Assembly: GCF_964355755.1 (NCBI RefSeq)
Contig: NC_092673.1
Location: forward strand, 17,853,648 to 17,917,647
DNA length: 64,000 bases
DNA from: Antedon mediterranea
Lineage: Eukaryota > Animalia > Echinodermata
Direction of reading: 5' to 3'
The translations under genes were made by a program, and so were the position numbers. Positions 1,345 through 61,446 of the stretch are shown piece after piece. The notes beneath the pieces were generated by a model. It ran no database searches, had not been told where the DNA came from, and saw only the letters and a program-made list of their open reading frames with translations. Positions within the stretch are counted from its first letter, which is position 1. The number at the start of each line of letters is the position of its first letter.

Positions 1345-2468
1345 ATGGATTACAGATTTTCTTTCAAATCGACGCCAAAGGGTTATTTACGGAGGAGAAG
1401 GTCAGAGTGGGTAAATGTTACTTCAGGGGTACCACAAGGGTCAGTTTTGGGCCCTTTTTTATTTTTGATTTACGTAAGTGATATTGTAAATAATATTTCT
1501 TCTTCACTTTTTCAATTTGCTGTTGATCACACATTATCACGTCCTATTTATAACAATAATGATTGTAAATTGCTTCAAAAGGATTTAAATTTAATTGCTA
1601 AATGGGCAAATGTAAACAAACTTCCCTTAAATCCTGTCAAGTGCACCGTAATGCGCATGTTACAAGATGTAAAGAGATCGTTAACTGGGATTATACCATA
1701 GAATCAGACAATATTCCTAAAGTTACAGAATTCAAATTTCTAGGTGTGTATGTAAATAGTTCGTTGTCTTATCATACACAAGTTATATGTTGTAAAGCAA
1801 GCAGATTGCTTGGTTTCATTTCAAAATGTAGTAAAAATATGTCCTGGTTAGCTATGTTGAACTTATACAAAGCTCTATTACTTCCAGTGGTTACCTACTG
1901 TTGTTCAATGTGGGCACCATTTGAGAAATCATATATTAATAGAATAGAAAGTATACAAAGGAAAGCAACAAGGATAATAATGTTTAGAAAGGAAGGTTCC
2001 TGGGACACATCTTATTTTCATAGGTTGAAAGTGCTTGAATTATTATCTATTGATTGTTTAAATTACATAGACTTTCATTAGGATTTAAGGTGTTGAAAGG
2101 TTACTGTCCCCATTCTTTCAATGAGTATAATATTAAGACTAGTGAAAGATGTCCGGGTAGGCTTTTACGTTGGAATTCGAAAGGCAATATTTTTCATAAT
2201 TCTGTATTTGTTTCCTTTCCTAGACTATGGGAGCAAATACCAAATGACATAAAAGATTCACAAACAATTTCAATATTTAAGGCTGCTTTAACAAAACACT
2301 ATATTTCATGTTATGTATAGTTTATTTGTATTTTTCTTGTTTATGGTTTTATCTTAACTGTTTGTATTGTATGGAGTGAGTGCAGAATCTGTTTGGGCTT
2401 TAGCCTATTCTCATTTCTGGTTATTTTTACATTGATGACCGAATAAATATTATTATTATTATTATTAT
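1345..2468 (+). mobile_element. 5'-truncated, frameshifted CR1/L2-group LINE (RT C-terminal part and 3' tail)
   Basis: Three overlapping ORF pieces: SGVPQGSVLGPFLFLIYVSD, a degenerate YADD motif (FAVD), FKFLGV, IESIQRKATR, PRLWEQIP. Ends in AATAAA followed by (ATT)n. Confidence 0.9.
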
Positions 2469-2580
2469 AATTAATGAATATATAAAATGGTTTTGAAGTA
2501 AAAGGAGAAAAGTGCATGTTTTACAGTACCTGTACTTAAAATGACTGAAGTTCATAGTTGGTTTCAAATATTTTTGCCAG

Positions 2581-5500
2581 ATTTGAGGAAAAGCATGTAG
2601 TTACAGATGGCATAGCCGTGATAAGAACAGCAAGCACAACATGGAAAGAGGCTAATGCTGATAGTGGTAAACATGAATACAAATTAGCATATTACTCTTC
2701 CCATCATAACTGGCTATGTAACATTATTTATTATTTATCATTAATCTCATTATCATAGACACAAACAGGCCCACAATGAAACGGAGGTGTAGAATGGAAT
2801 TCAATAAATGTATACAACCGTAGTACTGTATGGTGTGAACGGTCTTATTTTCACATACATTATACTAATACAATTGTTATGATCTCTTAGCACGCAAGCT
2901 ATGTTACAGTGTTTGATGATGTATTGTAATTTTACATTAATTAATCAATAAGTTTGACAGTTGTCCAAAGTATACTTACGTATTAATGTATCTGCTAAAA
3001 TAATATGTGCACACTGTCTTTTTTTCCCACAGGTAATCCTTCAAATCAGTATACAAAAATGGTCACTGACAAACTGAGAGCAAGGAAAACTGTAAGCATA
3101 ATGTCAATAATAGTGTAATAAAACATAAAATAAATAAAATATAAGTACCTACAGCACATTCCTACTATTGCAAACCAGTCACTTACAGAATGCAATGAGA
3201 CATTATGAGCAGCTATTTTAATGTTTTAAATTTCTAATTATTGTTTTGAGAATAAATATTACTTTTTATTTCTATTAAAGGTAGACAGTATTCAATATTT
3301 GATGAATATGTGTCAGGTTAACATGAAACCATCTACAGAAGATGATGATGGTATTGTTAACTACAATATTGATGACAACAATGATGATTACAAAAATGAT
3401 GGTATGTAACTTTTCCGTAAATTCTTATCTATTACATTTTGTAGTAAAAACACTAATAAATAAGTCTTATATTATGAGTTGGCAATTTTTCATAGTTATT
3501 TGAAATAATTAAGATAATATTATAAGATTTTCTAATTTAAAGTAACTAAATAACTATAACATTATTAAAATTATGTGCTCAGATTTAGAGGCAACCTATC
3601 TGTGTAAAAATTATGGTCACATAATTTTCTACTATGATAATGACAACTATAATTAACTATAACTTGGAGACGAAATATCATCTGTGTAACAATTATGATT
3701 GACAGTCATACATTTCTAGACAGTGAAAACAAAAGTTATAATGATGACATTAAAAATGAAAAACAAGGATGAAAATAATAATGATAATGATGACGTGTTA
3801 GATATTAATAATGGTGAAGCCTGCATCTATGTGGTAGTGGGTGGTGACTTTAGCAATGATGATGATAATGAAAATTACAACAAAGAGGACAACTAAAACA
3901 ATACTCATAATATATATATTAATATACTGGGACTTAAATTTGTCATTAAAAATGAAATCATTTGCATATTTTTTATATTACTTGTATGTAAAAAAGCTTG
4001 TTTCCACTACAGGTACTGATACAGCTACTAAAGCTGTTCCATTTGATACAGAACAGCAGTTTGATAAGAATGTAATCAAGAAAGTTGAGAAAAATAAAGA
4101 AGAGACTTTGGAAGAAACATTCAACATCTGGGATCATGGAGGTCAAATGATATACCATGGTATACATCGGGTAAGTTATAATATATGTTATTGCCTTGTA
4201 AGTTGATATTTTATTGTTTAAATACTTTCTACACATTTCTATAATAAACAGCCAGTTAAAAAGATAACATAATTGGTTTCATTCTAAGAGCGCTATATCA
4301 AATTTGTAATGTAATGTAATAATAACATAATTGTATGGCCAAGGTATAGTTTGCCTTTTTCTCCATTCAGTAATTGTAATCCAATGGTTAGTGCTTATAT
4401 AAAATGTTGATATATTACAAATTTTCTATAAAAACAAGGCAAGTATTTTTATTAATTAAATTATTTTCTTCAGTTTTCAATCATAATTGATTTTAGCCAC
4501 ATTGTTTATGAATTTGTACCAGAGAAATAATTTATATACTTTATATATTAGAGACCACTACAGAATAAATTGTACTTGTTCATAGGCCTTTAAGAATATT
4601 AATCGAATATTTGAATAACAAGCACATTATTTTTTCCAGATCTTCGTAACATCAGAAGCACTTTACATCGTAGTGTTTGATCTCAGTGTGAACCTCGAAG
4701 ATCGTGCTATCGTCATTGATCCTAATGGCGTAAGTATTGTAAGACTAATTAAGGTATTGTAGTTGAAAAAGCACTTACTTTTTTTTAAAGTAATTTTGTT
4801 TTGATTTTGTTTTTTTTGTTTTTTTCAGAAAAAGCATCAACATCATTGGACCAATCTCCAGTTCATATTATCTTACATCCTGTCAGTTTATTCTCATAGT
4901 CGTATTGTGAAAGAAGATGCAAAGAATGAAGTTAACAAACCAACTATCCTTATTGTGGGTACACATAAGGGTAAGCTTGGCGAGACTGAAAAAGAACAAA
5001 ATGATGAGGTAATATCTATTTCTAGCCACAATCAGGTATTACTGCTCCATAAATTTAAAGAAACTGAACTAGAATACTTTATTAAACAACTTTATCAGGC
5101 ATATAATATAAACGGTTTTTAAATGATAAAAATATTATTTTAAATATATGACAGTATATGACTAATGTGCTCATTACATAATATATATTTTCTACATTTT
5201 TATAAACTTTTTACAACCAGGCAAATATAATTTTTGAGAAGGTTCAAGATGTTCTTAGAGGGAAACTGTATGAAGAACATATATATCAATATTTTGCCAT
5301 TGAAAACAGCCGAGAAACAACAGATAAAAGCTTTAGTGATCTCAAAGAGGTTATTGAGAAACTTATGAAAGCTTTAGAAAAAGATATTCCTTTAAAGTGG
5401 ATGCGTTTTCGATGTGATCTTCATGACCTCAGAAGGAAAAGACATTTTTCTTTGTGTCCTTTAGAAGAGGTAAACTTTATTTTGTAACCACATTAATAAT

Positions 5501-11500: not shown

Positions 11501-14500
11501 TGGATAGTTTTTGTAAAAGATACCTAAAACAAGCATGGCAATTTCGAAATGATTCACTGAATTCCATGACTCAATAACTATGTTATCTACATTGCTACAT
11601 TAAGTAAATTGAAAAAAAAGTGGGGGGGGGGGGGAGAGGAGTTGGGGGTTTTTCGTAATAAGCTGTGTTTATCAGCTGATTTTATTTTATTTTATACACT
11701 TTTACTATATCTTGTTTTGTATTCATTGTGTAAAGTAATGATCTACTGTATGTATCGATGTAAATTGGGGGGGGGGGGTAGGATAGGGGTTGATAGTTGC
11801 TTTTGCCTTTTTTTACTTTTCTGTTAATTGTTATATTTTATATTGTGAAGGATGCACCTTTGTGCTAAGTGTGCCACCGATCTAAAGGTGTAATTCCAAA
11901 TAAATAAATATATGATGTCATATCAATACCATATTTGGGCATATCACTCATATTTGGGCACATCACACTTTTTTTGTCAGACACGTTTGATAGTGTAAAC
12001 AGAGTTTTAGTATTAATGCACTACTTTCTTAATGATCAAATCTCAATCATCCAGTGTAAAAGTGCCATGTATATAAACAAATCCTAACGTACTTTAAACA
12101 TATACTTCTCATTTTTATCATTTTTAGGCAGTAGTGATGAGGATGAAAGAGAAGGAACATCACGGAGTCACCAACAAAGTGAAGGTAAGATACTAGTAGA
12201 TAAAGATAGTGATATTGTGGAACAATATTCCTGATCCTATTAAAAATGCATCCACTATCTATTTCAAAACCCATCTTTTTTCTTTGTAATTTCTTTCTGT
12301 TTCTTCTCTCAGCGCTTTGGGACAATCTTTTGATTGTGTAAGCGCTTTATAAATCGAACAACACACACACACACATAATGATGATGAACAAGATTATAAT
12401 AATTTTAAATTAAAAAGTTGGTTATAATGATGATGATAATATACTCTCTCTAAAATTTATGATCATATTATTATAGCACCAAGAATATAATGTTGATTAT
12501 TAAGTTTAAAACTAGACTTGAAAGTGATTTGTGCAAACCCAAAAAAAAAATGTTTGTGAAAATTTGTAATGTTCAAGATTTGTGGTTATTTTGTACATGT
12601 TTGAGTTTTTGCGACGATAGCTTTCCATATATGATTGCATCAAATTACGATAGTACTGTACTTACACCAAATGTATAATTGTTTATGGTCATCATGGTCT
12701 AGATGGCAAAGACAATTAGACTCATGTAACAGATGATCGGGTCTAGGCTAGCCTATAGCTAGTACACGGTGGTTTCGAATATAGTAACTATGGACATAAA
12801 GTGTGTTTTCAACGCGCTTTTATTTTTTACGCTAACCAAAGCCTTTGTTGTTAAGGTTTTGCACGCTTGACTGAACGCGAGAGCCTAGCGAACATCGCTG
12901 AGATAGCGATAATTACTAAGCTAGTAAATTAAACGTTACAATCATAATATGAAATATTAACAACAAATAATAATATTTGCAAGTAAATATATTAGTTTTA
13001 CAACAAGCCATGAAGTAATACTTCAAATTATGCAATATTATTTCAGTTATTAGTAAAAATAGTACGACTGTTTTAACGATCGTACTCGATAGAATTGTAA
13101 ATAAATAGCGCCCTCAATAAAAAGCGCAAAGTACCGTACACTCATCGTCTGATATCTGTCGAACGTAGTCACTTCACCGAAAACTGACTGTTCAACGATC
13201 ATTTTCAATATTTATTCTTTCACCGTTTAAGTTTTCGTTTTGACGTAAAAACTGGTTAGAGCTCTACACACCTGGTAAATAAGACTACTTTTTTAACTCT
13301 AACGACAATTGATGTGGGTATTTTGGCATATTAAGATGCCCAGCCAGAGAAAGAAACACTGAACTACCTGTACTGTTCATAAAACTTTATTTACATTATC
13401 ATTTTACTGTATTTCATTGTATTATTTTTGTTGTGTAAATAAATTGCTGATTACAAAAATTACATAATTAATTAGGCCTAGGGCCTACAAATAATACTAA
13501 TTATGGATTTCCATTCTGAATCTTTATTAAATATTTGTAGAATTTGTGGAATAAAATTCAAAATTTCTGACCGAAAATATGAACTTAAAAGCATCAAAAC
13601 ACAAACTTTAAATTTTCTAAACATTAAAATTGTTGAAGAAGATAAAAATGTTCATCCATCATATGTTTGTCATACTTGTCAATCAGCTGCATACAAACAA
13701 ACGACATTAATTACACCTTATATCTGGAGACAACACGATGATTTACCGTGCACAGCTTGTTATCTTTATGAAAATCAACAGAAACAAGGTCACAGGATAA
13801 ATTTCAATAAAACAACTTTCATGCAAGATTTAAAATTCAATTCATTAACTGAGCAATTCACCCTTTATGACCAATCAGCACTGTCTTTGTTTCAATGTTC
13901 TATTTGTAAACATATTCTGTCGCTTGATAATGTAGAAACTCAGTGTTCCCACCATTTTTGTATGTACTGTCTCTGTCAATTGTTCTGTACTCTTCGACTA
14001 CGTACATTCCCATGTTTTGCCTGTGCGTCACCGATAACATTTGAACGTGACATGAAAAAACCATCATTACTGGTACAACAATCTTTGCAAACGGTTGAAT
14101 TGCAATGTCGGTTGTGTGGAAAATGTCTGAAGTACAACGAGTGCAGTCAGCATAAATGCACAACAGAGGCTGAGCAACGGTATAATGCTGTAACCAATGC
14201 AATTAAGACCATAAACAAGGAAATTGTTGGCGAGAAGGTACCCGAACCTGTCCAGCAATTTGCAAGGAAGTTGGTATCCAAATCACTAAAACAAACGAAA
14301 AAAATTGAGTTACCAACAAATGGAAGGGTAAGTTATTTTTTTTAGAAAGCCAACATTTTTCACAAAACCACTGTACCAAAGTACAGAGATTTTATTGAAT
14401 AATGGGCAAATCAAATGAACCTAAAAATTATATATAATAGTATATATATTTTAGACATATTTTTAAAAACTGACCATCAATGCGGGGTGTTTTGTTACCG

Positions 14501-17500
14501 AATTTATTGGAATAAACTACCCTACCACACAATATTGTATTAAAACACATTCCCTGAACACGAATAAATACGGTATTAAACTTTGACAATAAATCTTGTA
14601 AATATAAAACATATAAGAATGTTTTACTTACAGCCAATGACAATTACTACTATGACAAAAGCTACAAAATCCAGCAGTTGTGTTGGCAAAAGAACCCTCA
14701 GTCGACGCACCCATGAATTATCAACCATACGAAATTCAATATCGCATGATTCAGCTCAACTTCAATTTAATCATGAAATGCAATCTAACTTGCCACCAAT
14801 TGGTATCATTGATGATGTTGACAGGTCACTGGCCATCAAAGCTGACTGCGATCTTACTTGGCAACAAATACGGAAACTAAGAAGGCAAGTATGAAAATTA
14901 AGAAAATAGTGCATAAAATAATATATCAACATTTTAATTGGCTATATTTTAAAATGTCATTTTACAAAAATTAAATTGTTATTCTAAATTCTATTCAAGA
15001 TATGTGAAACCAGGTGTTATAGCATCGGAAGGTAAAATGCGAGATCGCCAATCGGATATTGTAGATGGATACTTACATGGTTCCATGGAAGAATTCATCT
15101 TAAAAAGTGATGCAGCAAATGCCGAGAATGGATTTGTAATATTTTCTGCCCCTGTTGTGCGGGTGATTAATATTGAGAGGTTGATGTTTTCCTACTTGGA
15201 CCACCATCATGAGTAAATAACATGCTTATTTTACATTTTGTAACTCCAAATTTATGCAAACAATAAAATAAAAATACAATATTGTATATTTCACTTACAG
15301 ATTAAACAATCTAAAGTTCTACAACAACGAAGTGTGGATCAAATTTGGAGGTGACAAAGGAGGCGGCAGTACGAAATTTGAACTGCAAATTTGCAGTCTA
15401 GAGAAACCAAACGCCCTTCGCAACATTATTGTTATTCTAATGTTCGAGGCACCAGATTATACCATCAACATCAGCAGGGTATTTCCGGATGTATGCGAAG
15501 AGGTCATGAAACTGAATGGAGGTATGTCTTCAACATTAAAATTATTTTAATTTAAAAAAAACAATCTTTTTTTGTGTGCTGTATTAATTTAAATTTTTTT
15601 TCCTTTAAGGGGCCACAAAATTCGTCTCTTTTTCTTTGGAGACTACGAGTTTTTGTCACGGATGTATGGCCTAAATGGACCAAATGGTAAGATAGAGTAT
15701 CTTATTTAATATGCATTTAATGTGAATTATAATTTATTGTATACAAACCTTAATTGTTATTTCAAATCTTTCATTAGGAAGGTACTGCTGTCTCTTTTGC
15801 CATCATACCAAACATCAGATATGCAGAGGTGATGTTCCAAAAGACCACAGGTCTATAAAGACATTGAATGAAGACTATCAATTGTTTGAAGATCATGGAA
15901 TGGTAAACTCCAAGGAGGTATCCAGGAGTGTAATCAGAAAAACAATGGTGCCTATTGACATCGACCATGTAGGAAATATATATATTTTGGTTAAATATTG
16001 TTTTCATAGTTATGCACTTATCAATTGTGTGACTTACCATATGAACCCCGGTAGAAGTGCATCAGGTCTCGGGTCCATTCTATTGTCGCCACAGATTGAT
16101 ATCTTCATCAGTACTTCTATGAATGGATGATTAGGTGGGAACACGAACGCTAGTTGATCATACCCAGTACCGTTTGATCGTACGATTAATCGGGAAACTA
16201 CCTTACGATATCGAAACGTGGCAGGCTGAAGGCGCTTGACCTTTGACAAGATCGCCTAAATTTTTAGTTTTTAACTTTACAATACTTAGTGTTGTATATT
16301 CTGGTACAGCCGCTTCATGATCTCTTTGCTTTTCTTCCTTATATCTTTACTCTTTTTAAAAGTTTTACTAACGATTTTTATTTTATTTTATTTTATTATA
16401 TTTATATTTTTGCTTCATGTACACGACAACTAACGATCAAATAACAGTTTTTCACATCGCAACTTATACAACGTAATTTTGAAAACTACAACCATTTTTC
16501 TATATACATACAACGTACATTTCTAGTCTAACAAAAACATTTTTCTAAACTTTCTATTATTTAAAAGTCGAAGATAGCCAGGTCTCGGGTCCATTCTATT
16601 GTCGCCACAGATTGATATCTTCATCAGTACTTCTATGAATGGATGATTAGGTGGGAACACGAACGCTAGTTGATCATACCCAGTACCGTTTGATCGTACG
16701 ATTAATCGGGAAACTACCTTACGAAATCTGAATTGAGTTTCTATCACTCAGCTGCTTATTAAAGAATTAATTAAATTTAAATATTAATTTACTTACAGCT
16801 TCAAATATATCAGACTTCATGTCCAACTGCAGAAAATTGGAGATCAACATATCTCCAAAATTGCACATGCTCGAATTTCATGTTGTGGAATTTTTAAAGC
16901 GATGGCATGTTGGAATCGGCTTGTTAAATGAGCAGGGGGGTGAACTTATTCACTCGTCATTTAACAAAAAAAGAAGAAGTCTCTATGGTGTAAAGTCAGC
17001 TCTGGCAAAAACAATGTCAGTGATGAAGAATCACTTAATCTTCACACAACCTGAAGTTCAAGCAAAAATAAAACATGCTGTGAAAAGGAAGCACAGTATG
17101 TATTTTAAATACCATCAGTAAACCTTTGATGATTTTGTAGAAATAATAGTATTATCAAAGTATTTGTTTTTGTTTGCAGATGCAGAACAGTAGATGGTTG
17201 AAGTGCTGCTATGTCAAATAACTGTTGCAATATTAGAAATATCTGTATAAACAAAATTTAGTTAGGTGTGCTTGCATACATTTATGCAGAGCAGTAGATG
17301 ATTGAAGTGCTGCTATGTCAACTAACTGTAGACAACATCGTAGATTTCTTTTTTCTTCACTTAATTAGTGTTTAATATAAATATTCAAACAAATGTTAGT
17401 TTATATACATACCATTTAAACAGTATCTGAATAATGATTGGAGCTCATCCATGTGTTCTGAAAAATATTATATGTTCCAAATAGTTTTAATTAATGGAAA

Positions 17501-20500
17501 TTATCATAAAACAGTTTGACATTTGTCAAAATGTCAAGACATGTTTGGATCAGTAAATATTAATTTAACGGCAGCGTTGTCAACTGAAGTATTTATTTAA
17601 ATAGAGGGACTATGTGTACAAAACAAAGGTAACTAAAGTAAAAAGTACATATTTTTTCCTCACTTACTTTAAAAAAAACTGTTTAATACTATAAGTATTA
17701 ATACAAATGGTTATAGGTTAAATAATATACATACCATTTAAACAGTATCTGTTATATTACTGAATTCATTCCTGTTATTGTGGATGTATAGTACGAGAAC
17801 TGTCATTTGATATTCTTATACATTCTGTGCCAAAACCATTGTAATACACCTCAATAATTCTATGCAAATTACTCTTTTCGTTTAACTTCAATGCCCGTCA
17901 CTTTTGACTGTGACAATATTGATTGGAGCACATCCATGTGTTCTGAAAAAAAAAAATATTATATGTTATTTGTTTAAATGCCAAGACATGTTTGGATCAG
18001 TAAATATTAATTTAACGGCAGCATTGTCAATTGAAGTATTTATTTAAATAGAGTGACTAGGCCTATGCGTACAAACATTTTGACAAAAGCTGACTAAAGT
18101 AAAAAGTACCTATTTTTTCCTCATTACCCTTTAAAAAAAACTGTTTAATACTATAAATATTAAAACAAATGGTTTTAGGTTAAATAATATACATACCATT
18201 TAAACAGTATCTTTTATATTACTGCATTAATTATTTAACCGATTCACCACGATAAGCGCTTAAAGCGCTCAAAAGGTTAAAAGTCAAGGTCATTGTAAAC
18301 AAATTTTCAACAACAAAAAAGTAAATCGAATTTACATGCGCAGTTTGCTGTGCATGAATCGTAACAACAAATTATACAAAATACTCACAACTTTTTTTAA
18401 AAAAATATGCTTCTAAATATATAAAAACAATTGTTGAAGTTAGTTTGAAAATAAAATTCGAAAATATAACCGTTTTTCGAAGCACGCTGTTCGAAACGCG
18501 ACAGGCGCGTTGAATGAATCTAGGCCTAAACATACAACGTAAAATCGTCTAAAATCCATCTTTATTTCTAATAATCACTATTTTGAAGCTTGTATACAAT
18601 AAATGTATAATAAATAAAGATTATGTATCAGTTACAGTGTCTAAATCGTCATATTTCCATGTAAAAATGTGATTTTTCTACCGGAGAAAAGTCGTGAAGA
18701 TGTCCTCATGAGGGCCGCGCCATATTGTTTACCTTTGATTGTAATATGAACCCTGACATGTCAGATGCATTATGGGCATGAAATATTTGTTCAAACTCTG
18801 CGCAAAGGTCAGTTTATTGAAGCATAACTTTTGACAAACATTTTGATACCAAACTTGTTTTAATTTCATAAGTTTTCGACGCATTTTCGTCAAATTTTCT
18901 GCAAGCTACACGTCTAAAACAGCGGACTAAGCTCCCGAGGGATGCCGGTGCGCATGGGAATCGCGAATTCCAAGTCGCTTTCGGGATGTTTTTTTTAACA
19001 TTCCCGGTGAACAAACAGCGGCGAGGACGCTCTCGGGGCGGCTCCCGATAGGCCTAGGCCCCATATTGTCATCGTCGGATGAGTCAGTCTACTAATTTCT
19101 TCATAATTTCGAAACCGGTCATTCATAATGGTCAAGTTTGGTCTTATTTTGAAGAGAAGAAATAGGTTCTGATGAAGAGATGAGTTTTATTATGAAATAT
19201 TTATTAATTTTTGTGCATTTGGTAGTCAAAGATAAATTACAAATTTTTAATAATTTTCCTAAAATATTTCTAAAATTTGCATAATCCATACTCCGCCAAA
19301 ATAAGTTGTAACACAAATTTGATAACATATTTGGAAATAAAATGTCCTTTGAATTATTTTTGTTTTTTAATTTTTTTAATGTCTGTGTTTCGAAAAAAAG
19401 TTAGGGTTAATTATATGACATATGCTTTTTGGGTCCCAGGGGAGCAAAATAAACTTAGGGGTCAATGGGTTAATGGGTGGATATACTAGCCTAGCTAGCC
19501 TAGGCCTACTAACTACTACTACTAGGCCTAGACCTAGCTAGCCTAACTAGGCCTAGCCTAGTATACTGGACATCATCGCTGATGTAATCATTATTATTAC
19601 CCAGTCCACCCCATCCAGATATCCATCCTAGTGCTAGGCCTATGTTAAGTTTTAAAATTTTAAATTAATATTATCACCTAAACTAAGCCTAGGCTAATGT
19701 ATTTTTTTTAAATAAAAAATAATCATTATCTTTATATACAAGCCAAGCCAAGTCGCGTCAACCTGGTAAGTGGACTTGACTACCCACGTGGGTAGATGGG
19801 GCGATCTTGGCCATGCTGTTACAATTCAAACACGGTTCACGTCAAGCTGAAACCTTATTTTAACAATTCTCGTAACAATTGCCTACCAAATAAAATAAAT
19901 ATCAGTTCCTAAAGTGACTAACAACTAATTATATATAAATATCCAAATTTAACCATATTTTTACATTGAATAATTACTAATTTTAAGCATATTTACACTC
20001 TAATTTCAACTACTCACCAGGCTTCGAAGAAACACGCTGTCTTTCTCGCCATCCCATAGTAAGATAAAATAACCGCTCATTTAACATTTTCTCATGAATA
20101 TTCATATTTTTTTTCGTTTTTAAGGCTCTAATTCGTTAATTGTAGAGGTCACTCACAAAATCTCAGAAAAAACGTGGCTTCCGGGTAAAATTATAGTGCG
20201 CCCTCTCTGGTTAGTTTATGGAAAATATTAGATTAAAACTATAGAGGGGGTATGACTTTTTGTCAATAACGAAACCACCGTGAGTAACAGGGGTACCCAT
20301 TCAGTAATACTAGTACTATACTAGTTTACTACAGTAGTACTAGCAAGGCCTATCCTGAAAGAGGTCTTGCTGCTTACAGATTTTTAGAATGATACAAAAG
20401 TATGATAATGTTAATCCGGGTGTCTTTTTTGAATTAGCACCATCTACTGTAACTAGAGGCCACAATTTTAAAATTAAAAAAGTTCATAGTAAATCGAAAC

Positions 20501-23500
20501 ACAGACAGAAATTCTTTTCAATATCTGCAGTAAATGATTGGAATAGTTTGCCATATCATATAGTAAATGCATCCTCTATAAATAATTTTAAAACCCATCT
20601 TGAAACACACTGGAAAACCCACAACCTAAAGTTTGAGCCATATAACCAAGATGTTCAAAGAGGGACTCACAAACCTTAACAGGTTTATAGTCTAAAGGTC
20701 AAGGTAAATCAAGGTAAAGGCCTATCCTGCATGGGACACATAGTACTATACTAGTTTACTACAGTAGTACTAGCAAGGCCTATCCTGCATGGGACACATA
20801 GTACTATACTAGTTTACTACAGTAGCACTAGCAAGGCCTATCCTGCATGGGACACATAGTACTATACTAGTTTACAACAGTAGTACTAGCAAGGCCTATC
20901 CTGCATGGGACACATAGTACTATACTAGTTTACTACAGTAGTACTAGCAAGGCCTATCCTGCATGGGACACATAGTACTATACTAGTTTACTACAGTAGT
21001 ACTAGCAAGGCCTATCCTGCATGGGACACATAGTACTATACTAGTTTACAACAGTAGTACTATCAAGGCCTATCCTGCATGGGACACATAGTACTATACT
21101 AGTTTACAACAGTAGTACTAGCAAGGCCTATCCTGCATGGGACACATAGTACTATACTAGTTTACTACAGTAGTACTATCAAGGCCTATCCTGCATGGGA
21201 CACATAGTACTATACTAGTTTACTACAGTAGTACTAGCAAGGCCTATCCTGCATGGGACACATAGTACTATACTAGTTTACTACAGTAGTACTAGCAAGG
21301 CCTATCCTGCATGGGACACATAGTACTATACTAGTTTACTACAGTAGTACTATCAAGGCCTATCCTGCATGGGACACATAGTACTATACTAGTTTACTAC
21401 AGTAGTACTAGCAAGGCCTATCCTGCATGGGACACATAGTACTATACTAGTTTACTACAGTAGTACTATCAAGGCCTATCCTGCATGGGACACATAGTAC
21501 TATACTAGTTTACTACAGTAGTACTAGCAAGGCCTATCCTGCATGGGACACATAGTACTATACTAGTTTACTACAGTAGTACTAGCAAGGCCTATCCTGC
21601 ATGGGACACATAGTACTATACTAGTTTACTACAGTAGTACTATCAAGGCCTATCCTGCATGGGACACATAGTACTATACTAGTTTACTACAGTAGTACTA
21701 GCAAGGCCTATCCTGCATGGGACACATAGTACTATACTAGTTTACAACAGTAGTACTATCAAGGCCTATCCTGCATGGGACACATAGTACTATACTAGTT
21801 TACTACAGTAGTACTATCAAGGCCTATCCTGCATGGGACACATAGTACTATACTAGTTTACTACAGTAGTACTAGCAAGGCCTATCCTGCATGGGACACA
21901 TAGTACTATACTAGTTTACTACAGTAGTACTAGCAAGGCTTATCCTGCATGGGACACATAGTACTATACTAGTTTACTACAGTAGTACTAGCAAGGCCTA
22001 TCCTGCATGGGACACATAGTACTATACTAGTTTACAACAGTAGTACTAGCAAGGCCTATCCTGCATGGGACACATAGTACTATACTAGTTTACTACAGTA
22101 GTACTAGCAAGGCCTATCCTGCATGGGACACATAGTACTATACTAGTTTACTACAGTAGTACTATCAAGGCCTATCCTGCATGGGACACATAGTACTATA
22201 CTAGTTTACAACAGTAGTACTAGCAAGGCCTATCCTGCATGGGACACATAGTACTATACTAGTTTACTACAGTAGTACTATCAAGGCCTATCCTGCATGG
22301 GACACATAGTACTATACTAGTTTACAACAGTAGTACTAGCAAGGCCTATCCTGCATGGGACACATAGTACTATACTAGTTTACAACAGTAGTACTAGCAA
22401 GGCCTATCCTGCATGGGACACATAGTACTATACTAGTTTACTACAGTAGTACTAGCAAGGCCTATCCTGCATGGGACACATAGTACTATACTAGTTTACT
22501 ACAGTAGTACTAGCAAGGCCTATCCTGCATGGGACACATAGTACTATACTAGTTTACTACAGTAGTACTAGCAAGGCCTATCCTGCATGGGACACATAGT
22601 ACTATACTAGTTTACTACAGTAGTACTAGCAAGGCCTATCCTGCATGGGACACATAGTACTATACTAGTTTACAACAGTAGTACTAGCAAGGCCTATCCT
22701 GCATGGGACACATAGTACTATACTAGTTTACTACAGTAGTACTAGCAAGGCCTATCCTGCATGGGACACATAGTACTATACTAGTTTACTACAGTAGTAC
22801 TAGCAAGGCCTATCCTGCATGGGACACATAGTACTATACTAGTTTACTACAGTAGTACTAGCAAGGCCTATCATGCATGGGACACATAGTACTATACTAG
22901 TTTACTACAGTAGTACTAGCAAGGCCTATCATGCATGGGACACATAGTACTATACTAGTTTACTACAGTAGTACTAGCAAGGCCTATCCTGCATGGGACA
23001 CATAGTACTATACTAGTTTACTACAGTAGTACTAGCAAGGCCTATCCTGCATGGGACACATAGTACTATACTAGTTTACTACAGTAGTACTAGCAAGGCC
23101 TATCCTGCATGGGACACATAGTACTATACTAGTTTACTACAGTAGTACTAGCAAGGCCTATCCTGCATGGGACACATAGTACTATACTAGTTTACTACAG
23201 TAGTACTAGTAAGGCCTATCCTGCATGGGACACATAGTACTATACTAGTTTACTACAGTAGTACTAGCAAGGCCTATCCTGCATGGGACACATAGTACTA
23301 TACTAGTTTATTACAGTAGTACTAGCAAGGCCTATCCTGCATGGGACACATAGTACTATACTAGTTTACTACAGTAGTACTAGCAAGGCCTATCCTGCAT
23401 GGGACACATAGTACTATACTAGTTTACAACAGTAGTACTAGCAAGGCCTATCCTGCATGGGACACATAGTACTATACTAGTTTACAACAGTAGTACTAGC

Positions 23501-26500
23501 AAGGCCTATCCTGCATGGGACACATAGTACTATACTAGTTTACAACAGTAGTACTAGCAAGGCCTATCCTGCATGGGACACATAGTACTATACTAGTTTA
23601 CTACAGTAGTACTAGCAAGGCCTATCCTGCATGGGACACATAGTACTATACTAGTTTACTACAGTAGTACTAGCAAGGCCTATCCTGCATGGGACACATA
23701 GTACTATACTAGTTTACTACAGTAGTACTAGCAAGGCCTATCCTGCATGGGACACATAGTACTATACTAGTTTACTACAGTAGTACTAGCAAGGCCTATC
23801 CTGCATGGGACACATAGTACTATACTAGTTTACTACAGTAGTACTAGCAAGGCCTATCCTGCATGGGACACATAGTACTATACTAGTTTACTACAGTAGT
23901 ACTAGCAAGGCCTATCCTGCATGGGACACATAGTACTATACTAGTTTACTACAGTAGTACTAGCAAGGCCTATCCTGCATGGGACACATAGTACTATACT
24001 AGTTTACTACAGTAGTACTAGCAAGGCCTATCCTGCATGGGACACATAGTACTATACTAGTTTACAACAGTAGTACTAGCAAGGCCTATCCTGCATGGGA
24101 CACATAGTACTATACTAGTTTACTACAGTAGTACTAGAAAGGCCTATCCTGCATGGGACACATAGTACTATACTAGTTTACTACAGTAGTACTAGCAAGG
24201 CCTATCCTGCATGGGACACATAGTACTATACTAGTTTACTACAGTAGTACTAGCAAGGCCTATCCTGCATGGGACACATAGTACTATACTAGTTTACTAC
24301 AGTAGTACTAGCAAGGCCTATCATGCATGGGACACATAGTACTATACTAGTTTACTACAGTAGTACTAGCAAGGCCTATCCTGCATGGGACACATAGTAC
24401 TATACTAGTTTACAACAGTAGTACTAGCAAGGCCTATCCTGCATGGGACACATAGTACTATCCTAGTTTACTACAGTAGTACTAGCAAGTCCTATCCTGC
24501 ATGGGACACATAGTACTATACTAGTTTACTACAGTAGTACTAGCAAGGCCTATCCTGCATGGGACACATAGTACTATACTAGTTTACAACAGTAGTACTA
24601 TCAAGGCCTATCCTGCATGGGACACATAGTACTATACTAGTTTACAACAGTAGTACTAGCAAGGCCTATCCTGCATGGGACACATAGTACTATACTAGTT
24701 TACTACAGTAGTACTAGCAAGGCCTATCCTGCATGGGACACATAGTACTATACTAGTTTACTACAGTAGTACTAGCAAGGCCTATCCTGCATGGGACACA
24801 TAGTACTATACTAGTTTACTACAGTAGTACTAGCAAGGCCTATCATGCATGGGACACATAGTACTATACTAGTTTACTACAGTAGTACTAGCAAGGCCTA
24901 TCCTGCATGGGACACATAGTACTATACTAGTTTACAACAGTAGTACTAGCAAGGCCTATCCTGCATGGGACACATAGTACTATACTAGTTTACTACAGTA
25001 GTACTAGCAAGGCCTATCATGCATGGGACACATAGTACTATACTAGTTTACTACAGTAGTACTAGCAAGGCCTATCCTGCATGGGACACATAGTACTATA
25101 CTAGTTTACTACAGTAGTACTAGCAAGGCCTATCCTGCATGGGACACATAGTACTATACTAGTTTACTACAGTAGTACTAGCAAGGCCTATCATGCATGG
25201 GACACATAGTACTATACTAGTTTACTACAGTAGTACTAGCAAGGCCTATCCTGCATGGGACACATAGTACTATACTAGTTTACTACAGTAGTACTAGCAA
25301 GGCCTATCCTGCATGGGACACATAGTACTATACTAGTTTACTACAGTAGTACTAGCAAGGCCTATCCTGCATGGGACACATAGTACTATACTAGTTTACA
25401 ACAGTAGTACTAGCAAGGCCTATCCTGCATGGGACACATAGTACTATACTAGTTTACAACAGTAGTACTAGCAAGGCCTATCCTGCATGGGACACATAGT
25501 ACTATACTAGTTTACTACAGTACTACTAGCAAGGCCTATCCTGCATGGGACACATACTGTAGTATCATCACAGACGCATTCAATTTGAACCTGAACTAAA
25601 TAAACTAGCATTAACACAAACGCATAAAATCAACAGTTTAATTGAGAAATAGTTTTACAGCAATGCATTAATCTTTGTTGGGAACACATTGGGAAAGCAA
25701 AACCAAGGACAAGCCTCTACCCACCCGTGGCTTACGTACGAGCCTAGCTATGGCTGCCTTCAGCCAACTACTGTCAAGTCCTAAATTTTAATTGTTTAAT
25801 ATACCAAAACTTGCCACATATAGCCAAGTCTAGAATGACACACATGTGACTGTCAATTTTTCCAGAATTTACAATGTCAAGTTTTCCAAAGTTTACAGTA
25901 GTTTGATATTTCTTATTGAACTTGATCTCAACCTGACATAATTCCACAATATTTTTATTTTGAAATAGTAGAGTGGAGAGAGAACATAACACAAATTTAA
26001 TATTTACCTCAATTACTTTTTAATTTGTTTAATTTTTTTTTTGCTTTTACATTTTGTTGATATTCTATACTTATAATTAAACAAACAAATTATTTTCATT
26101 TTGGAAACAATAATAAAAAATAATAATAAATGTGCTATAATTTTATTTGCAGACAGGAACACAATTGCAGAATCGAAAACTTGCGACAATTTCCAAGATC
26201 TAAAAGCTGGTCTCAGTGGATGCTTTGACGGTGAAAAATACCGTTGGCTAAGATTCCTACTATTTTCTCACTTGAGTGTCAGTGAAATTACAAATCCACA
26301 GTTCAATGGACATAACTTACTCAATACACTTGAAGACAAAGATTTCATCTCACCAACCAATGTTAACTTGCTGTTAGAGATTACAAATATATCTGAAATC
26401 CAACAGGCCAAAGATCTTGTATCAAAGTATATGAGAGACAACAACATTCTGAATAGACATACTGATAGAACCAAGTTGTCACCTTACAGAAAGCGACTGT

Positions 26501-26974
26501 TCAAGGCCCTGAATCAAGTTGACCCAGATGCATTACGTAATGTTACTGCTTACTATAAATTAACAAAATATAGCTTCTCCAATGTATGGGATGCAGTTCT
26601 CTATCTGGAGATTGATAAACAATTAGTAGATGATTTAGACAAAATAAATCGGTTTGCAGAACGTCTTAGCACAACAGCAAGTAACATACTACTTGGTATG
26701 CATTTCTACTTTGTATTGTATTAAGTTATTTGTAATATTATTGAATCTTTCATTTATAAACAGTTTAAGTAATTATCATATATTATCATATTTATGATGC
26801 TAATCTACTGAATTTATTACAGTGGAAAATATTGTGTTTTATGAATTTATATTTATTTTTCATAATCTTAAAAAAACAATTACAATTTCCACAATAATCA
26901 TGATAACTGTTATACTAAATTTATTGACACTGTTTTTCATTTGTATAGATCTCTCAGAGGATGAGAAGACTTAG
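2581..26974 (+). CDS. Multi-exon Roco-family gene (Roc GTPase - COR - tandem DED-like domains), 5' incomplete. Exons: 2581-2665, 3033-3091, 3281-3401, 4013-4170, 4640-4729, 4829-5008, 5221-5469, 6633-6821, 6958-7140, 7396-7704, 7798-7869, 8503-8719, 12128-12184, 26153-26695, 26949-26974
   Basis: Phase-compatible GT-AG exons join into one frame. Roc motifs: TDG (G2), IWDHGGQMIYHGIH (G3), ALYIVVFDL, PTILIVGTHK (G4), FAIEN. COR motifs: IPLKW, LNFLYDLGEIVY, VLDP, LMIQLGFI, FFVP. The P-loop exon was not found in the window. Confidence 0.85.
5587..5902. mobile_element. MITE-like foldback element in an intron
   Basis: The ~85-bp arm at 5587-5670 (aatgtatagaaactcag...taatcagagg) recurs inverted at ~5800-5902. 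Confidence 0.65.
6120..6514 (-). mobile_element. LINE (L2/CR1-group) 3' remnant
   Basis: HNLNTRSKS...SGKRTFQYRSVKLWN is a typical RT C-terminal motif. AATAAA and a (tatc)n tail follow on the - strand. Confidence 0.75.
9095..9272 (-). mobile_element. End of a non-autonomous Helentron/HINE (DINE-1-like) element
   Basis: Terminal palindrome tacctcc-ttggc-ggaggta next to an (acaa)n(acag)n microsatellite. Confidence 0.6.
9866..9945 (+). mobile_element. Degenerate tRNA-derived (SINE-head-like) sequence
   Basis: A-box-like TGGCTCGGTGG and B-box-like GATCGAGT at tRNA spacing; no intact cloverleaf. Confidence 0.4.
10125..11095. repeat. 88-bp minisatellite, about 9 copies, interrupted by a ~150-bp insert at ~10293-10444
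   Basis: Unit cagtagtagtactatcagaatcattattgataatctatacattgttacaacatgctgctattagctgtgatatcttcattcctcttac; period 88 (10133 to 10221). Confidence 0.95.
11340..11910 (+). mobile_element. Non-LTR retrotransposon 3' remnant
   Basis: ORF tail H..CP.Y...KYILG...YLKQAWQFR, then a 3' UTR ending in (taaa)n. Confidence 0.55.
13503..17121 (+). pseudogene. Chapaev (RAG1-related) DDE transposase pseudogene. Exons: 13503-14327, 14634-14884, 15000-15212, 15301-15521, 15610-15686, 15778-15968, 16799-17121
   Basis: Chapa zinc domain (H-x7-CRICG...DxxxHP..CxxC..W..H..CxxC) and C3HC4 RING (CSIC..CSHHFCMYC..CFAC). Core motifs: WIKFGGDKGGG, FGDYEFLSRMYGL.GPNGRYCCLFC, SPKLHMLEFH, EQGGELIH. There is a phase mismatch at the 15521/15610 junction, and the middle of the core is missing where 16063-16724 sits. 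Confidence 0.88.
16063..16724. mobile_element. Small insertion bounded by ~146-bp direct repeats (16063-16208, 16579-16724); unclassified non-autonomous retroelement-like
   Basis: Repeats caggtctcgggtcc...ctaccttacga look identical by eye and flank a ~370-bp AT-rich interior. No TG..CA ends or TSD were seen. Confidence 0.6.
17436..18222. repeat. Dispersed ~300-bp duplication (17436-17760 and 17921-18222) inside the Chapaev element
   Basis: Shared sequence gattggagc..catccatgtgttctgaaaaa...aagacatgtttggatcag...ataccatttaaacagtatct. Confidence 0.8.
20358..20716 (+). mobile_element. 5'-truncated CR1-type LINE with a 13-bp TSD
   Basis: TRGHNFKIKK...KFFSISAVNDWNSLP; aaggtaaatc-type tail; TSD aaggcctatcctg at 20345-20357 and 20717-20729. 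Confidence 0.9.
20717..25556. repeat. 58-bp satellite, about 83 near-identical copies (a partial first unit lies at 20311-20357)
   Basis: Unit aaggcctatcctgcatgggacacatagtactatactagtttactacagtagtactagc, with only a few recurring variants. Confidence 0.98.
26153..26695 (+). CDS. Exon encoding two tandem death-effector-domain-like units (C-terminus of the Roco gene)
   Basis: Phase-1 exon (ttgcag|AC ... G|gtatg). Unit 1: FQDLKAGLS..LRFLL..GHNLLNTLEDKDFISPTNVNLLLEI. Unit 2: LSPYRKRLFKAL..VWDAVLYLE. Both fit the DED helical pattern. Confidence 0.7.
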
Positions 26975-52213: not shown

Positions 52214-55200
52214 TCAAAACTTTATTTGAATGGCCTCATGATAGCTATAATAGATAGGAGTCACTTCCACCTGTATTGAGTCTAGACCTTTGCTATATAC
52301 ATGATCAATCAATGTATTACTTTCGGTAGTAGAACTTGTAACATGTTGTTGGTACCCATTATCTGACAATAAATTGTTCACTCTGGAAGGTAGTTTGAAA
52401 AGGTTTTCGTTAAAGTCACCCATTATGATACATTTTGTACTTACTTTATGTAACTGTTCTAGTAAGTTTCTCAAATGGTGACAAAATTGTTTGATATCAT
52501 AGCTCGGGGGTCTATATATTACTGAAACAGCAACTGAAATTGGACATGTTATTAAAAAGGAAATTGCTTCTATATCGTTAATACGTATGTCTAACTTGCT
52601 TGAAAACTTGTTCTTGGTATAGACTGCAACGCCACCATGAGCCTGATTTTTTAATTTTAAAGTTATGTCATTGCTATTAGAATATGAGTCATACCTTGTT
52701 TGGTGATACAACTTGTACTGCTCTATACTTAAATCAAGTAAGTCGTCATCCTTATTTAACCATGTTTCAGTTAGACATACGATACTAGAGTGCATAAACC
52801 AACCATTGCACTGAAGATCAGCAAAATGTTGTTTAAGTCCTTGAATGTTATGTAACATGATTGAATTTTTATAAACAATATTATTAACTTGTTTATCACA
52901 TTGTACGTATGAATTCATATTTTGTAAGTATTTCGTTATTTTAGAATCACAATAAATCAAGTTAGGATGAACATGTTCAATGACAAGTCCAGAAAGTGAA
53001 GTAACACGACTTAGAGCTACATATGCTTGTCCTGGTGCAAAAGTCTTTTTAAGGCAAACCACCGCTTTATCCATTGTCATTCCTTGCACTTTATGGACTG
53101 TACAGGCATATGCTAGTTTGAGTGGAAACTGCCTACGATTAGATTTTTTTCCGACAGTTTCCTGAAACATTTCTATTAAATGAGTACCAATGTCACTGTT
53201 GTCAAATGTTACCTTAATTGATGTTGGCTTTACGTTTTGACTGGGCTTAATTATTTCTTCAACATGTCCCATACATCCATTTGTTAAGCCTTTCTTAACA
53301 TCTACATTCTTAATCAACATCACTTTGGCATTAACTGCAATCCACAAATGTTTTGGTAAATTTGATTGACACGATTTCTGAGTCTTATCACCATGTTTGT
53401 CCTGCTTCTTGCTGTTTACAACAATATTTTCTGCTTCAATACAAACAATATTGGTGCAGGTGTTATGTAACATTTGTTTATTCCAATCATTAACTTGTTT
53501 ATTGCATGGGTATATATGAACAGAATCTTCGCATTGTTCACCTGTTTCACGTGATTTTAAAACTGATAATTCTTTGTCCGACAAACAGTTTTTTTTTTCT
53601 TTTGTACGCAATTTGTTTAACAATACAGCAAAATCTTTATCTTTCTTTTGTCTCATAATTTCATCTAACTGCACTTTTTTGAAATTATTTATCCACAATG
53701 AGTTTTCCAATGTTTCTTTATACAAAGAAGTACCTTTCACAGGGGGTAACTGATAAAAATCACCTACTGCAATTACTGAAATATTACCAAAAGCACTATC
53801 GTTACGAACTTGTTTGATTTGCCGCAATCGTCCGTGGACGTACCATAGTAGCTTTTGATTGACCATTGATATTTCATCTATAATGACAATTTGCAACTGT
53901 CCTAATTCATTACGAAGCGCACTTACTTTTTCTTCTCCAAGTGGCTGATATGGAAGTGAAATATAAATGGGAATAGACAAAGCACTATGAATTGTGTGAC
54001 CTTTGATATTATATGCGGCAATTCCTGTGGGAGCTAGTTTTAATATTGACAGGTCATCGGGATTTTCCATAATTTGTCCGAGAATGCGTGTTGCTTCATT
54101 GTAAATACAATTAACCAAATGACTTTTTCCAGTGCCAGCACCTCCAGTTATAAAAGTATAAAATGGTTCTGGTTGTTTACCATTAACTTTATCTAAGCAC
54201 CATTGCCTTGTCTTATAAAATATCTGTTTTTGTTTTTCATTTAAAGGTCGAATCATTTTGTTTAATTCTGGTCTTGAAATACGAATTGAGTTACACTCTG
54301 TTGTAGATATTTCATTTTTTTTAAGTCCAAAATCTGGAATGACGAATTCGTCTTCTTCATCATCAATGTCAACATTTGGCAGTGGATTTTCTAACCTTTC
54401 CTTTTCGTTTTCTGGACACAATAGGCCCCATGCGTCTTCTTGTGGTCCAAATTTTGCTAAAACCTCTTTTGCATGTTCAATATCATCAGCACTTTTGTCA
54501 TACTGTCGCATGTTTTCATCAACTATAGAATATACTTTTTGTAAGTTACTGTCACATAATTTGACAGATCCTTCCTCATAAAATTCTTGATATGTTTCAA
54601 ATTTATGTGGTTTTAACTGTTTATCTGTTCGAAATGGCAAAAATAACTGCAATATACTCATAAAGTATTTTTCAGATGCTGTTTTTACTGGAAACCTAGG
54701 GTACCTTACTATAGCATTATCAGTTCTTGTTCGTTTTTGGATGAATCCTAGATGTTTTTGTAATTGAAAGACGTTCTTTCTCTGTGCCTTTCCTTTCATT
54801 TCTGATGAACTTATCATTCTAAAATGAGAACAAAAAGTTGCAAGGCACATTTTATCAAAATCAGAACTTGTTGGTCGAGCTTTATATTTGTCAAGCTTAT
54901 TTGGTAACCATGCACTCCCACTGTCGTCCACTTTGTTTTTAATTACACTTAGTGGTAAACTCATTCTAACCGGATTAGGTCCTACTGGTATAAATTCAAC
55001 TTTTCTGGAACATTCTTTCAATCTCAATCCACATACACGATAAACACTTTCTTGCGCAGACACTTCTCTATTGTTCATATACACATGACCAAGTTTACTT
55101 AAACTTTGTCTAGCGTTTTCATTTCCTTCTTTCACTTCTGCTGCTGCATGAGATAGAAGTAAGCCCATTTCTCTTTCAGCTTTCGACATATATGATACAA

Positions 55201-61364: not shown

Positions 61365-61446
61365 AAATTTGTGTCAAATTCTATAACAATTACTAATTTA
61401 TTTATTCTGTAAAATGCTATAAAAAATCGTTACGTATGGCTACAAA

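Follow-up and report, generated by a model that had tools for sequence, protein, structure and literature searches.

The origin of the 12/23 rule of the recombination signal sequences (RSSs) of RAG1/RAG2 is debated: in one view Transib transposons provided a 'seed', some Transibs being the only other known case (PMC8355894), and in another the source was RAGL-A, of the RAG-like (RAGL) elements (10.1101/2023.08.20.553239). Ends with 12/23-like spacing have been described in some Transibs (PMC1131882), in subgroup I Transibs (PMC9435367), in PflRAGL-A (10.1101/2023.08.20.553239) and in AanRAGL, and an equivalent of the nonamer-binding domain (NBD) of RAG1 has been described in Transib. We report on a Chapaev transposon located at positions 12765-20282 of a stretch of 64,000 nucleotides of the echinoderm Antedon mediterranea (hereafter the window; assembly GCF_964355755.1, contig NC_092673.1, positions 17,853,648 to 17,917,647, forward strand). 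Judging from the sequences compared, the design of one short and one long end extends to Chapaev, and the A-tract of the RSS nonamer does not; this suggests that the spacing behind the 12/23 rule is likely to be older than described. Our literature search, which also covered PMC7204232, PMC12730594, 10.64898/2026.01.24.700457 and 10.1101/100735, met no description of asymmetric bipartite ends or of an NBD for Chapaev, the 2007 Repbase Reports, Panchin and Moroz 2008, figures and preprint supplements lying outside its coverage; the Chapaev3 termini in the supplement of PMC4079192 are of about 32 bp, too short for a test of a 22-23 spacer. An initial annotation of this stretch had been aware of no description of such an end rule in a RAG2-less Chapaev lineage. 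For Chapaev this stands, as far as that search reached; asymmetric ends without RAG2 are already known in Transib (PMC1131882, PMC9435367).

The element is a DNA transposon of 7518 bases of the Chapa+RING type, with terminal inverted repeats (TIRs) identical over 13 bp and a target site duplication (TSD), AGTA, flanking both ends. The left end is formed by the heptamer CACGGTG (12765-12771), a 22-nt spacer and ACATAAAGT (12794-12802), which matches the RSS nonamer at 6/9 positions. The right end, read inward, is formed by CACGGTG, a 12-nt spacer and ACAAAAAGT (20263-20255), with a nonamer match of 7/9. The heptamer agrees with that of the RSS at six of seven positions and, with a second block at 12 and 22, the two ends fall within 12+/-1 and 23+/-1. 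All end coordinates of the initial annotation were correct, and its 12/22 spacers, CACGGTG heptamers, perfect 13-bp TIR and 4-bp TSD were borne out by the sequence; it had also described a nonamer shared at an offset of 10 bp, and here the offset is real but the common block is longer than claimed, comprising 14 nt with 12 matches (12789-12802 against 20268-20255). The features of the ends are as follows.

12761-12764, no strand: left TSD AGTA, 4 bp (sequence and empty site)
12765-12777, plus strand: left TIR, 13 bp, heptamer CACGGTG followed by GTTTCG (a CACRG..GTTT pattern is also present in relatives)
12789-12802, plus strand: left subterminal box (long end), nonamer-register part 12794-12802; 4.8 bits on the relatives' profile
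12824-12835, plus strand: left-end-specific distal motif TTTACG (TTTCCGGT in relatives), 38 nt past the box
20246-20254, minus strand: right-end-specific context CATACCCCC, directly behind the right box, 10 nt nearer the terminus than in relatives
20255-20268, minus strand: right subterminal box (short end), nonamer-register part 20263-20255; -1.5 bits on the relatives' profile
20270-20282, minus strand: right TIR, 13 bp (two further flanks behind it in another sample)
20283-20286, no strand: right TSD AGTA (sequence and empty site)

The copies of this family were studied through contigs of public runs. Both boundaries of the element are exact, because an empty site was found in another sample: contigs of runs X3 and X5, both of one sample, join 12760 to 20283 with four shared letters and skip 7522 bases, that is, 7518 + 4. 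The left end was also found on a different flank, and the right end on two further flanks as well as on the window's own flank (X4); one copy had a damaged terminus, and run X1 was uninformative, no contig covering the right end. No substitution was listed over 20250-20282 in contigs of another sample, which says little since the copies compared are close. The contig depth of the element itself was about 100-250. The family is low-copy and recently mobile, and the window copy is insertion-polymorphic and broken, with a frameshift, missing exons and two nested repeats.

For a single element, the chance of an equally good common block is p = 0.01-0.05 at any offset and p = 0.001-0.005 at offset 10/11, and that of equally good RSS-nonamer matches at 12+/-1 and 23+/-1 is p = 0.001-0.002. 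Given that many transposons were scanned, such statistics are not decisive alone, and it is the comparison across families that carries the case. Relatives were collected by a HMMER search with the last exon (802 proteins, 150 of them listed) and by a degenerate pattern of the first-D motif on metagenome contigs, which gave at least 116 loci; 103 of 116 were confirmed by tblastn, and, beyond the first 80 listed, the other 36 loci (of about 0.6 kb in 35 cases) were not extended. A word-index protein search with exon 1 yielded no matches, and no relative was found in three viral-contig scans. The TIR pattern was made of the first 10 bases plus the TSD and was chosen after an initial look at the ends, the box not being used; a looser TIR search (10/12 matches) was dropped because it gave many chance pairs. 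Among 71 confirmed loci of at least 1.5 kb, 14 displayed an end pair with a 4-bp TSD, this TSD being the selection criterion for the validated pairs, and they formed 12 families with cores 40-80% identical (ten from assembly WLWD01, one from WLWI01 and one from WASV01). The other 57 had a short flank, an absent end or a TSD mismatch, as in L007, with both ends and no TSD match. The window transposase was 28-34% identical to all relatives and, in an unrooted tree built without named Chapaev, Transib or RAG1 sequences, grouped weakly (support 64-73) with locus L047 and proteins P0035 and P0146.

Two side observations concern these loci. In L042, a left end of the same family lies about 250 bp past the right end and faces back toward the element. 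In L032, the heptamer CACAGTG, a 12-bp spacer and a box of the family type make up a TIR-like end at positions 3190-3260, downstream of a truncated Chapaev transposase; it probably belongs to another element and was left uncounted because the right end of L057, its family mate, is not the same.

A 10-nt motif learnt from the right ends, its position being free, was found at a spacer of 22-23 in 12 of the 12 families. When this motif was scanned freely on the left ends, it was 10-12 bp nearer the terminus in ten families (spacers 11-13), a figure reached in 0 of 5000 shuffles, whose maximum was six. In the reverse direction the left-learnt motif gave 6/12 (also 0/5000 shuffles), the lower count arising because the left-only search drifted to other sites in five families. 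The pairwise identity was 0.31 and 0.38 in the right and left spacers, 0.63 and 0.56 in the respective fitted boxes and 0.83 in the terminal 11 bases; beyond the first four conserved bases, the letters of the spacers were near random and their length was held. In unpaired ends of further families, which were chosen by their first 12 bases without TSD validation, the box was at spacer 11-13 in 5/7 left ends and at 22-24 in 5/7 right ends. Similarly, 15 of 24 distinct TIR-like sites outside the training set, which include the two ends of the window element and two ends of trained families, carried a box at 11-13 or 22-24, 5.8 being expected. The check proposed with the initial annotation, namely conservation of the nonamer at fixed offsets of 12 and 22/23 with variable spacers, came out in its favour as regards the spacing in ten of the 12 validated families, at offset 10-12. 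A 12/22-type spacing is common to most of the related Chapaev families examined.

The sequence of the box behaved differently from its spacing. The family consensus is GG-RCAYTTAG, which is not an A-tract. RCAYTTAG and the RSS nonamer are in register over the first three bases, ACA in the latter, and differ at positions 4-8; scored with the family profile in the same register, the RSS nonamer is among the best 2.8% of 9-mers. In RSSs, adenines are essential at nonamer positions 5 and 6 (PMC1131882); in the relatives these adenines were found in 0 and 1 of 24 ends by automatic placement, and in 2 and 2 of 24 when L038 and L058 were set by eye. They are present in both ends of the window element and in L047, whose unpaired left end has the window's ACAAAAAGT at spacer 12. 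The RSS-like, A-rich nonamer that the initial annotation had seen did not hold as a family trait, and a conserved RSS-type A-tract was rejected on the basis of the family box RCAYTTAG. The close nonamer match is therefore specific to the window lineage, so that the spacing is general and the A-tract local; the A-rich look of the window box is likely to be a local drift from the family consensus.

The window element differs from its relatives in the polarity of its ends, since they have the short spacer at the left and the long one at the right, whereas in the window the long is at the left and the short at the right. Its best box sites are the family positions, exchanged. The C-rich context specific to right ends moved with the right box, 10 nt nearer the terminus (28-138 of 50000 random segments score equally), and the distal motif specific to left ends is, as in relatives, 38 nt past the left box and therefore about 10 nt further in (about 345 of 50000 random segments match its score); neither motif scores at the unshifted position in the window. 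The simplest explanation of this exchange would be a single inversion of the interior, its crossover lying within the box, and two compensating indels would also fit; the comparison of spacers could not separate these routes. Under either of them the family moved with exchanged ends, and short and long are therefore not tied to the direction of the gene. The exchange is compatible with a pairing rule and is no proof of one.

We also compared the transposase with proteins of known structure. A predicted model of the relative P0037 (predicted local distance difference test, pLDDT, 71) had the RAG1 core as its best match (Foldseek E 2e-17; Z 25.3, root-mean-square deviation (rmsd) 3.9, 460 residues aligned, residue 413 of the model corresponding to residue 460 of mouse RAG1), and it also matched HzTransib (Z 23.8) and BbeRAG1L (Z 23.7). 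The 72 residues before the P0037 core begin with G-Q-P at residue 341 and make up three predicted helices; the motif is G-R-P in the window, where it spans the first intron, and G-[RQK]-P in 7/7 long proteins checked. When this segment was modelled alone from 30 sequences (pLDDT 84), the RAG1 NBD (3gnb) shared the first rank of 48,161 chains (Z 4.2; 62 residues aligned with an rmsd of 4.7, residues 389-456), three further RAG rows appeared in the structure ranking, and 6 of 13 Foldseek rows were RAG1 (E 3.3-9.2). Because the match is below significance, its weight comes from the agreement with the position before the core. Profile searches of PDB sequences with the Chapaev segment retrieved no RAG1 match, only designed armadillo repeats and weak chance matches. 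In RAGL, a CCGHC tail makes the NBD dispensable (10.1101/2023.08.20.553239). No such tail was found in the window, in any of the 12 families or in any of the 150 proteins among the matches listed, many of them fragments, and Chapaev would therefore depend on the NBD-like segment, as RAG1 does.

On balance, we lean towards considering the window element as a broken Chapaev copy whose short/long 12/22 design is shared by most related families and is likely read by a domain equivalent to the NBD, whereby a short end would be paired with a long one by the transposase. We infer a functional rule of the 12/23 kind, which may operate as follows. The terminal block, CAC...GTTT, would be read by the transposase core, and the three-helix segment, as a dimer, would bind both boxes, tilting to absorb the difference of one turn, as in RAG. 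The design would descend from an ancestor common to Chapaev, Transib and RAG1. In the window lineage short and long have changed ends, with continued movement of the family after that. A stronger proposal, to which we give somewhat less than an even chance, is that Chapaev enforces 12/23-type pairing without RAG2 through a homologue of the RAG1 NBD, the heptamer-spacer-box design and the spacer lengths coming from the Chapaev/Transib/RAG1 ancestor, and that the window element is a natural experiment in which short and long proved exchangeable as long as one of each remains.

Several points weigh against this interpretation. The support comes from sequence and models, and RAG1 in the absence of RAG2 has no preference for 12/23 (PMC8355894). 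The 12 families are not independent, ten being from one assembly and forming, together with an eleventh, a single clade, and the place of the window element in the unrooted tree has a support of 64-73 only. The left-only motif search drifted in 5/12 families; a plain test of the best offset of left against right gave 10-12 in only 4/12, with no peak in the pooled offset profile; and the box identities are overestimates, since it was the fit that aligned the boxes. On the profile, the right box of the window reaches no more than -1.5 bits, and L038, L058 and L047 are missed. The NBD match, which was obtained on L064 and P0037, relatives without known ends, is under the thresholds of the tools (Foldseek E 3.3-9.2; Z 4.2, a tie with an unrelated domain), and the window segment is without most of helix 3 and 10-15 aa shorter than in relatives. 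Finally, one inversion keeps the asymmetry trivially, and the exchange is thus no proof of selection.

The alternative that survives best accepts the box as a real transposase site and takes the short/long spacing as inherited and unenforced, so that symmetric pairs would work, as with ProtoRAG or RAG1 alone. The behaviour of RAG1 without RAG2 agrees with it, as do the 28-bp spacer of L018, the single inversion that suffices for the window exchange, and the distance from the box to the left distal motif, which is also fairly constant (35-40) though no rule should fix it. Nevertheless we consider it unlikely, since the 12/22 spacing recurs at only about 30% transposase identity (window, L001, L003 and L008) with spacer letters near random, no validated pair is clearly symmetric (two are not resolved by the profile), and the CCGHC clamp that frees RAGL from the distal box is absent from the Chapaev examined.

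Less probable still, in our view, is that the one-turn offset arose independently, any hinged dimeric distal DNA-binding domain being able to settle on 10-11 bp, with no bearing on RSS ancestry. The difference of the family box from the RSS nonamer at positions 4-8, the failure of sequence profiles to match the Chapaev segment to RAG1 in the PDB and the TSD of 4 bp against 5 bp point in this direction. However, it is not only the difference that agrees but also the absolute spacer lengths (11-13 and 22-23 against 12 and 23), the RSS nonamer ranks high under the family profile in the same register, and the segment in the NBD position begins with a GRP-like motif.

That the box is a host-factor or promoter site near both ends, rather than a transposase site, seems very improbable. 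The ends do carry other motifs, CCGGAA-like at the left and C-rich at the right, which we take to resemble transcription-factor sites. A YY1-like host factor is reported to bind the TIRs of ProtoRAG (PMC7481187). Against this, the distance of the box from the cleavage site is fixed at either end and differs by one turn between the two, in several unrelated assemblies, and the 3' half of the box varies between lineages. Lastly, a chance look-alike in AT-rich subterminal DNA, in spite of the single-element p of 0.01-0.05 at any offset and a right box below zero on the family profile, is largely refuted by the same spacers being kept family-wide and by two context motifs, independent of each other, that moved together with the boxes.

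Returning to the element itself, its TSD, termini and domains indicate that it is a Chapaev of the Chapa+RING kind. The initial annotation had made this assignment on the 4-bp TSD and the core motifs; here CAC...GTG termini, a Chapa zinc finger and a RING were recognized as well. A TSD of 4 bp fits the definition of Chapaev (3-4 bp; 4 bp outside Chapaev3), and so does an N-terminal Chapa zinc finger, to which two of the subgroups add a RING. The features of its interior are as follows.

13503-14327, plus strand: exon 1 of the transposase, zinc finger (Chapa/NZD-like) and RING, with ...NGR at its end (PF12560 at E 1.3e-4, under the cut-off; aligned to P0037)
14634-14884, plus strand: exon 2, P of G-R-P, segment in the NBD position and start of the domain for dimerization and DNA binding (DDBD), with a putative GC donor
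15000-15212, plus strand: exon 3, core (by alignment to a relative)
15301-15521, plus strand: exon 4, first catalytic D (WIKFGGDK), PF06918 at E 4.3e-13; frameshift near the 3' end
15610-15686, plus strand: exon 5, second catalytic D (GDYE), 66 residues past the first
15778-15968, plus strand: exon 6, C(2)C motif
16063-16728, no strand: nested high-copy repeat with 150-bp direct repeats (16063-16212 and 16579-16728), depth 4,000-24,000
16799-17121, plus strand: last coding exon, with H(4)H as HMLEFH and the catalytic E in EQGGE, without a CCGHC tail
18239-19469, no strand: nested high-copy element, TTAA-flanked, with CC...GG ends, depth about 2,000-4,600

Exon 1 is colinear with P0037 and P0035, both above the PF12560 cut-off, and its RING was read from the sequence and aligned to P0037. 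Of the DDE core, the two D, the E and the motifs C(2)C and H(4)H are present; the LH motif, which relatives have, belongs to the stretch that the window copy is missing. Between exon 6 and the last exon, relatives carry about 200 residues for which no counterpart was found in the window, and the repeat at 16063-16728 sits where these exons are expected. Part of this repeat was present nearly unchanged in the small run X2, and it had no match in Rfam. The intron that splits G[RQK]|P and the next one, after ...LRR (14634-14828 in the window), are at the same places in many metagenome relatives. In the 3' region, 17521-18232 is a tandem duplication of about 460 bp, and other copies, in which 17770 is joined to 19470, are without both this duplication and the TTAA-flanked insert, which is presumably piggyBac-like. 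The distance from the transposase to the right end is about 450-570 bp in 11 of 12 relatives. As to a second gene, there was no open reading frame (ORF) of at least 80 aa between the last exon and the right end, the nested repeat being excluded and a finely split gene not being profile-searched; the element was rightly called RAG2-less, in that no second gene was found. Transib membership was rejected because the TSD is of 4 and not 5 bp and because Chapa and RING are present, whereas Transib is core-only (PMC4411706); RAGL membership was rejected in view of the TSD and the domains, no RAG2-like gene and no CCGHC tail having been found.

Elsewhere in the window, a 58-bp tandem satellite occupies 20717-21000, just beyond the right end, the element being at the edge of a related unit. 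A 215-aa ORF with no Pfam match lies at 26077-26724 (plus strand). The G+C-rich segment 30188-35151 (minus strand), possibly a mobile element, contains two ORFs, one of 570 aa with a TatD DNase domain and one of 818 aa that matches nothing in Pfam. At 52214-61373 (minus strand) there are two long ORFs of Helitron type, one of 2152 aa with Rep, PIF1 helicase and endonuclease domains and another of 911 aa with Herpes_teg_N.

Chapaev is the most distant group with the N-terminal zinc finger and RING of RAG1. If it does have the same spacing and an NBD equivalent, this geometry would predate both the Transib and the RAGL-A candidates for the origin of the 12/23 rule. The family also separates two things confounded in RSSs, the length of the spacer being conserved and the A-tract not, and the apparently complete single-gene elements L070 and L002 offer a system to ask whether asymmetry can be enforced without RAG2.

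Compared with described systems, the element is closest to the Chapa+RING subgroup of Chapaev (CMC/CMCT clade; PMC4411706, PMC4079192, PMC12730594), with which it shares CAC...GTG termini, a 4-bp TSD, the Chapa zinc finger, the RING, a DDE core with C(2)C and H(4)H, PF06918 and a single gene. It differs in that the published descriptions, in the parts accessible, are without bipartite short/long ends or an NBD-like segment, and in that the window lineage, whose ends have the exchanged polarity, reaches no more than 28-34% identity with the relatives found. With Transib (Transib5, Transib2_AG and TransibN1-N3_AG, PMC1131882; subgroup I, PMC9435367) it has in common a single transposase gene, no RAG2, the CAC heptamer, a second block at about 12 and 23 bp and, putatively, an NBD equivalent of the GRP type; in contrast, Transib has a 5-bp TSD and an A-rich nonamer and has neither Chapa nor RING. 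RAGL-A of Ptychodera flava (10.1101/2023.08.20.553239) resembles it in the heptamer, the conserved adjacent block, the 10-bp spacer asymmetry, the distal block and, putatively, the GRP-type NBD, but has a RAG2L gene, a 5-bp TSD, a CCGHC tail and a much closer kinship to RAG1. From RAG1/RAG2 and the 12/23 RSSs the Chapaev system is set apart by an identity of about 15%, the lack of RAG2, a heptamer matching at 6/7 and a family box without the essential adenines at nonamer positions 5-6. It resembles them in the fold of the core (Z 25), in the order zinc finger-RING-NBD-like segment-core, in having no CCGHC tail and in spacers that are within 1 bp of 12 and 23.

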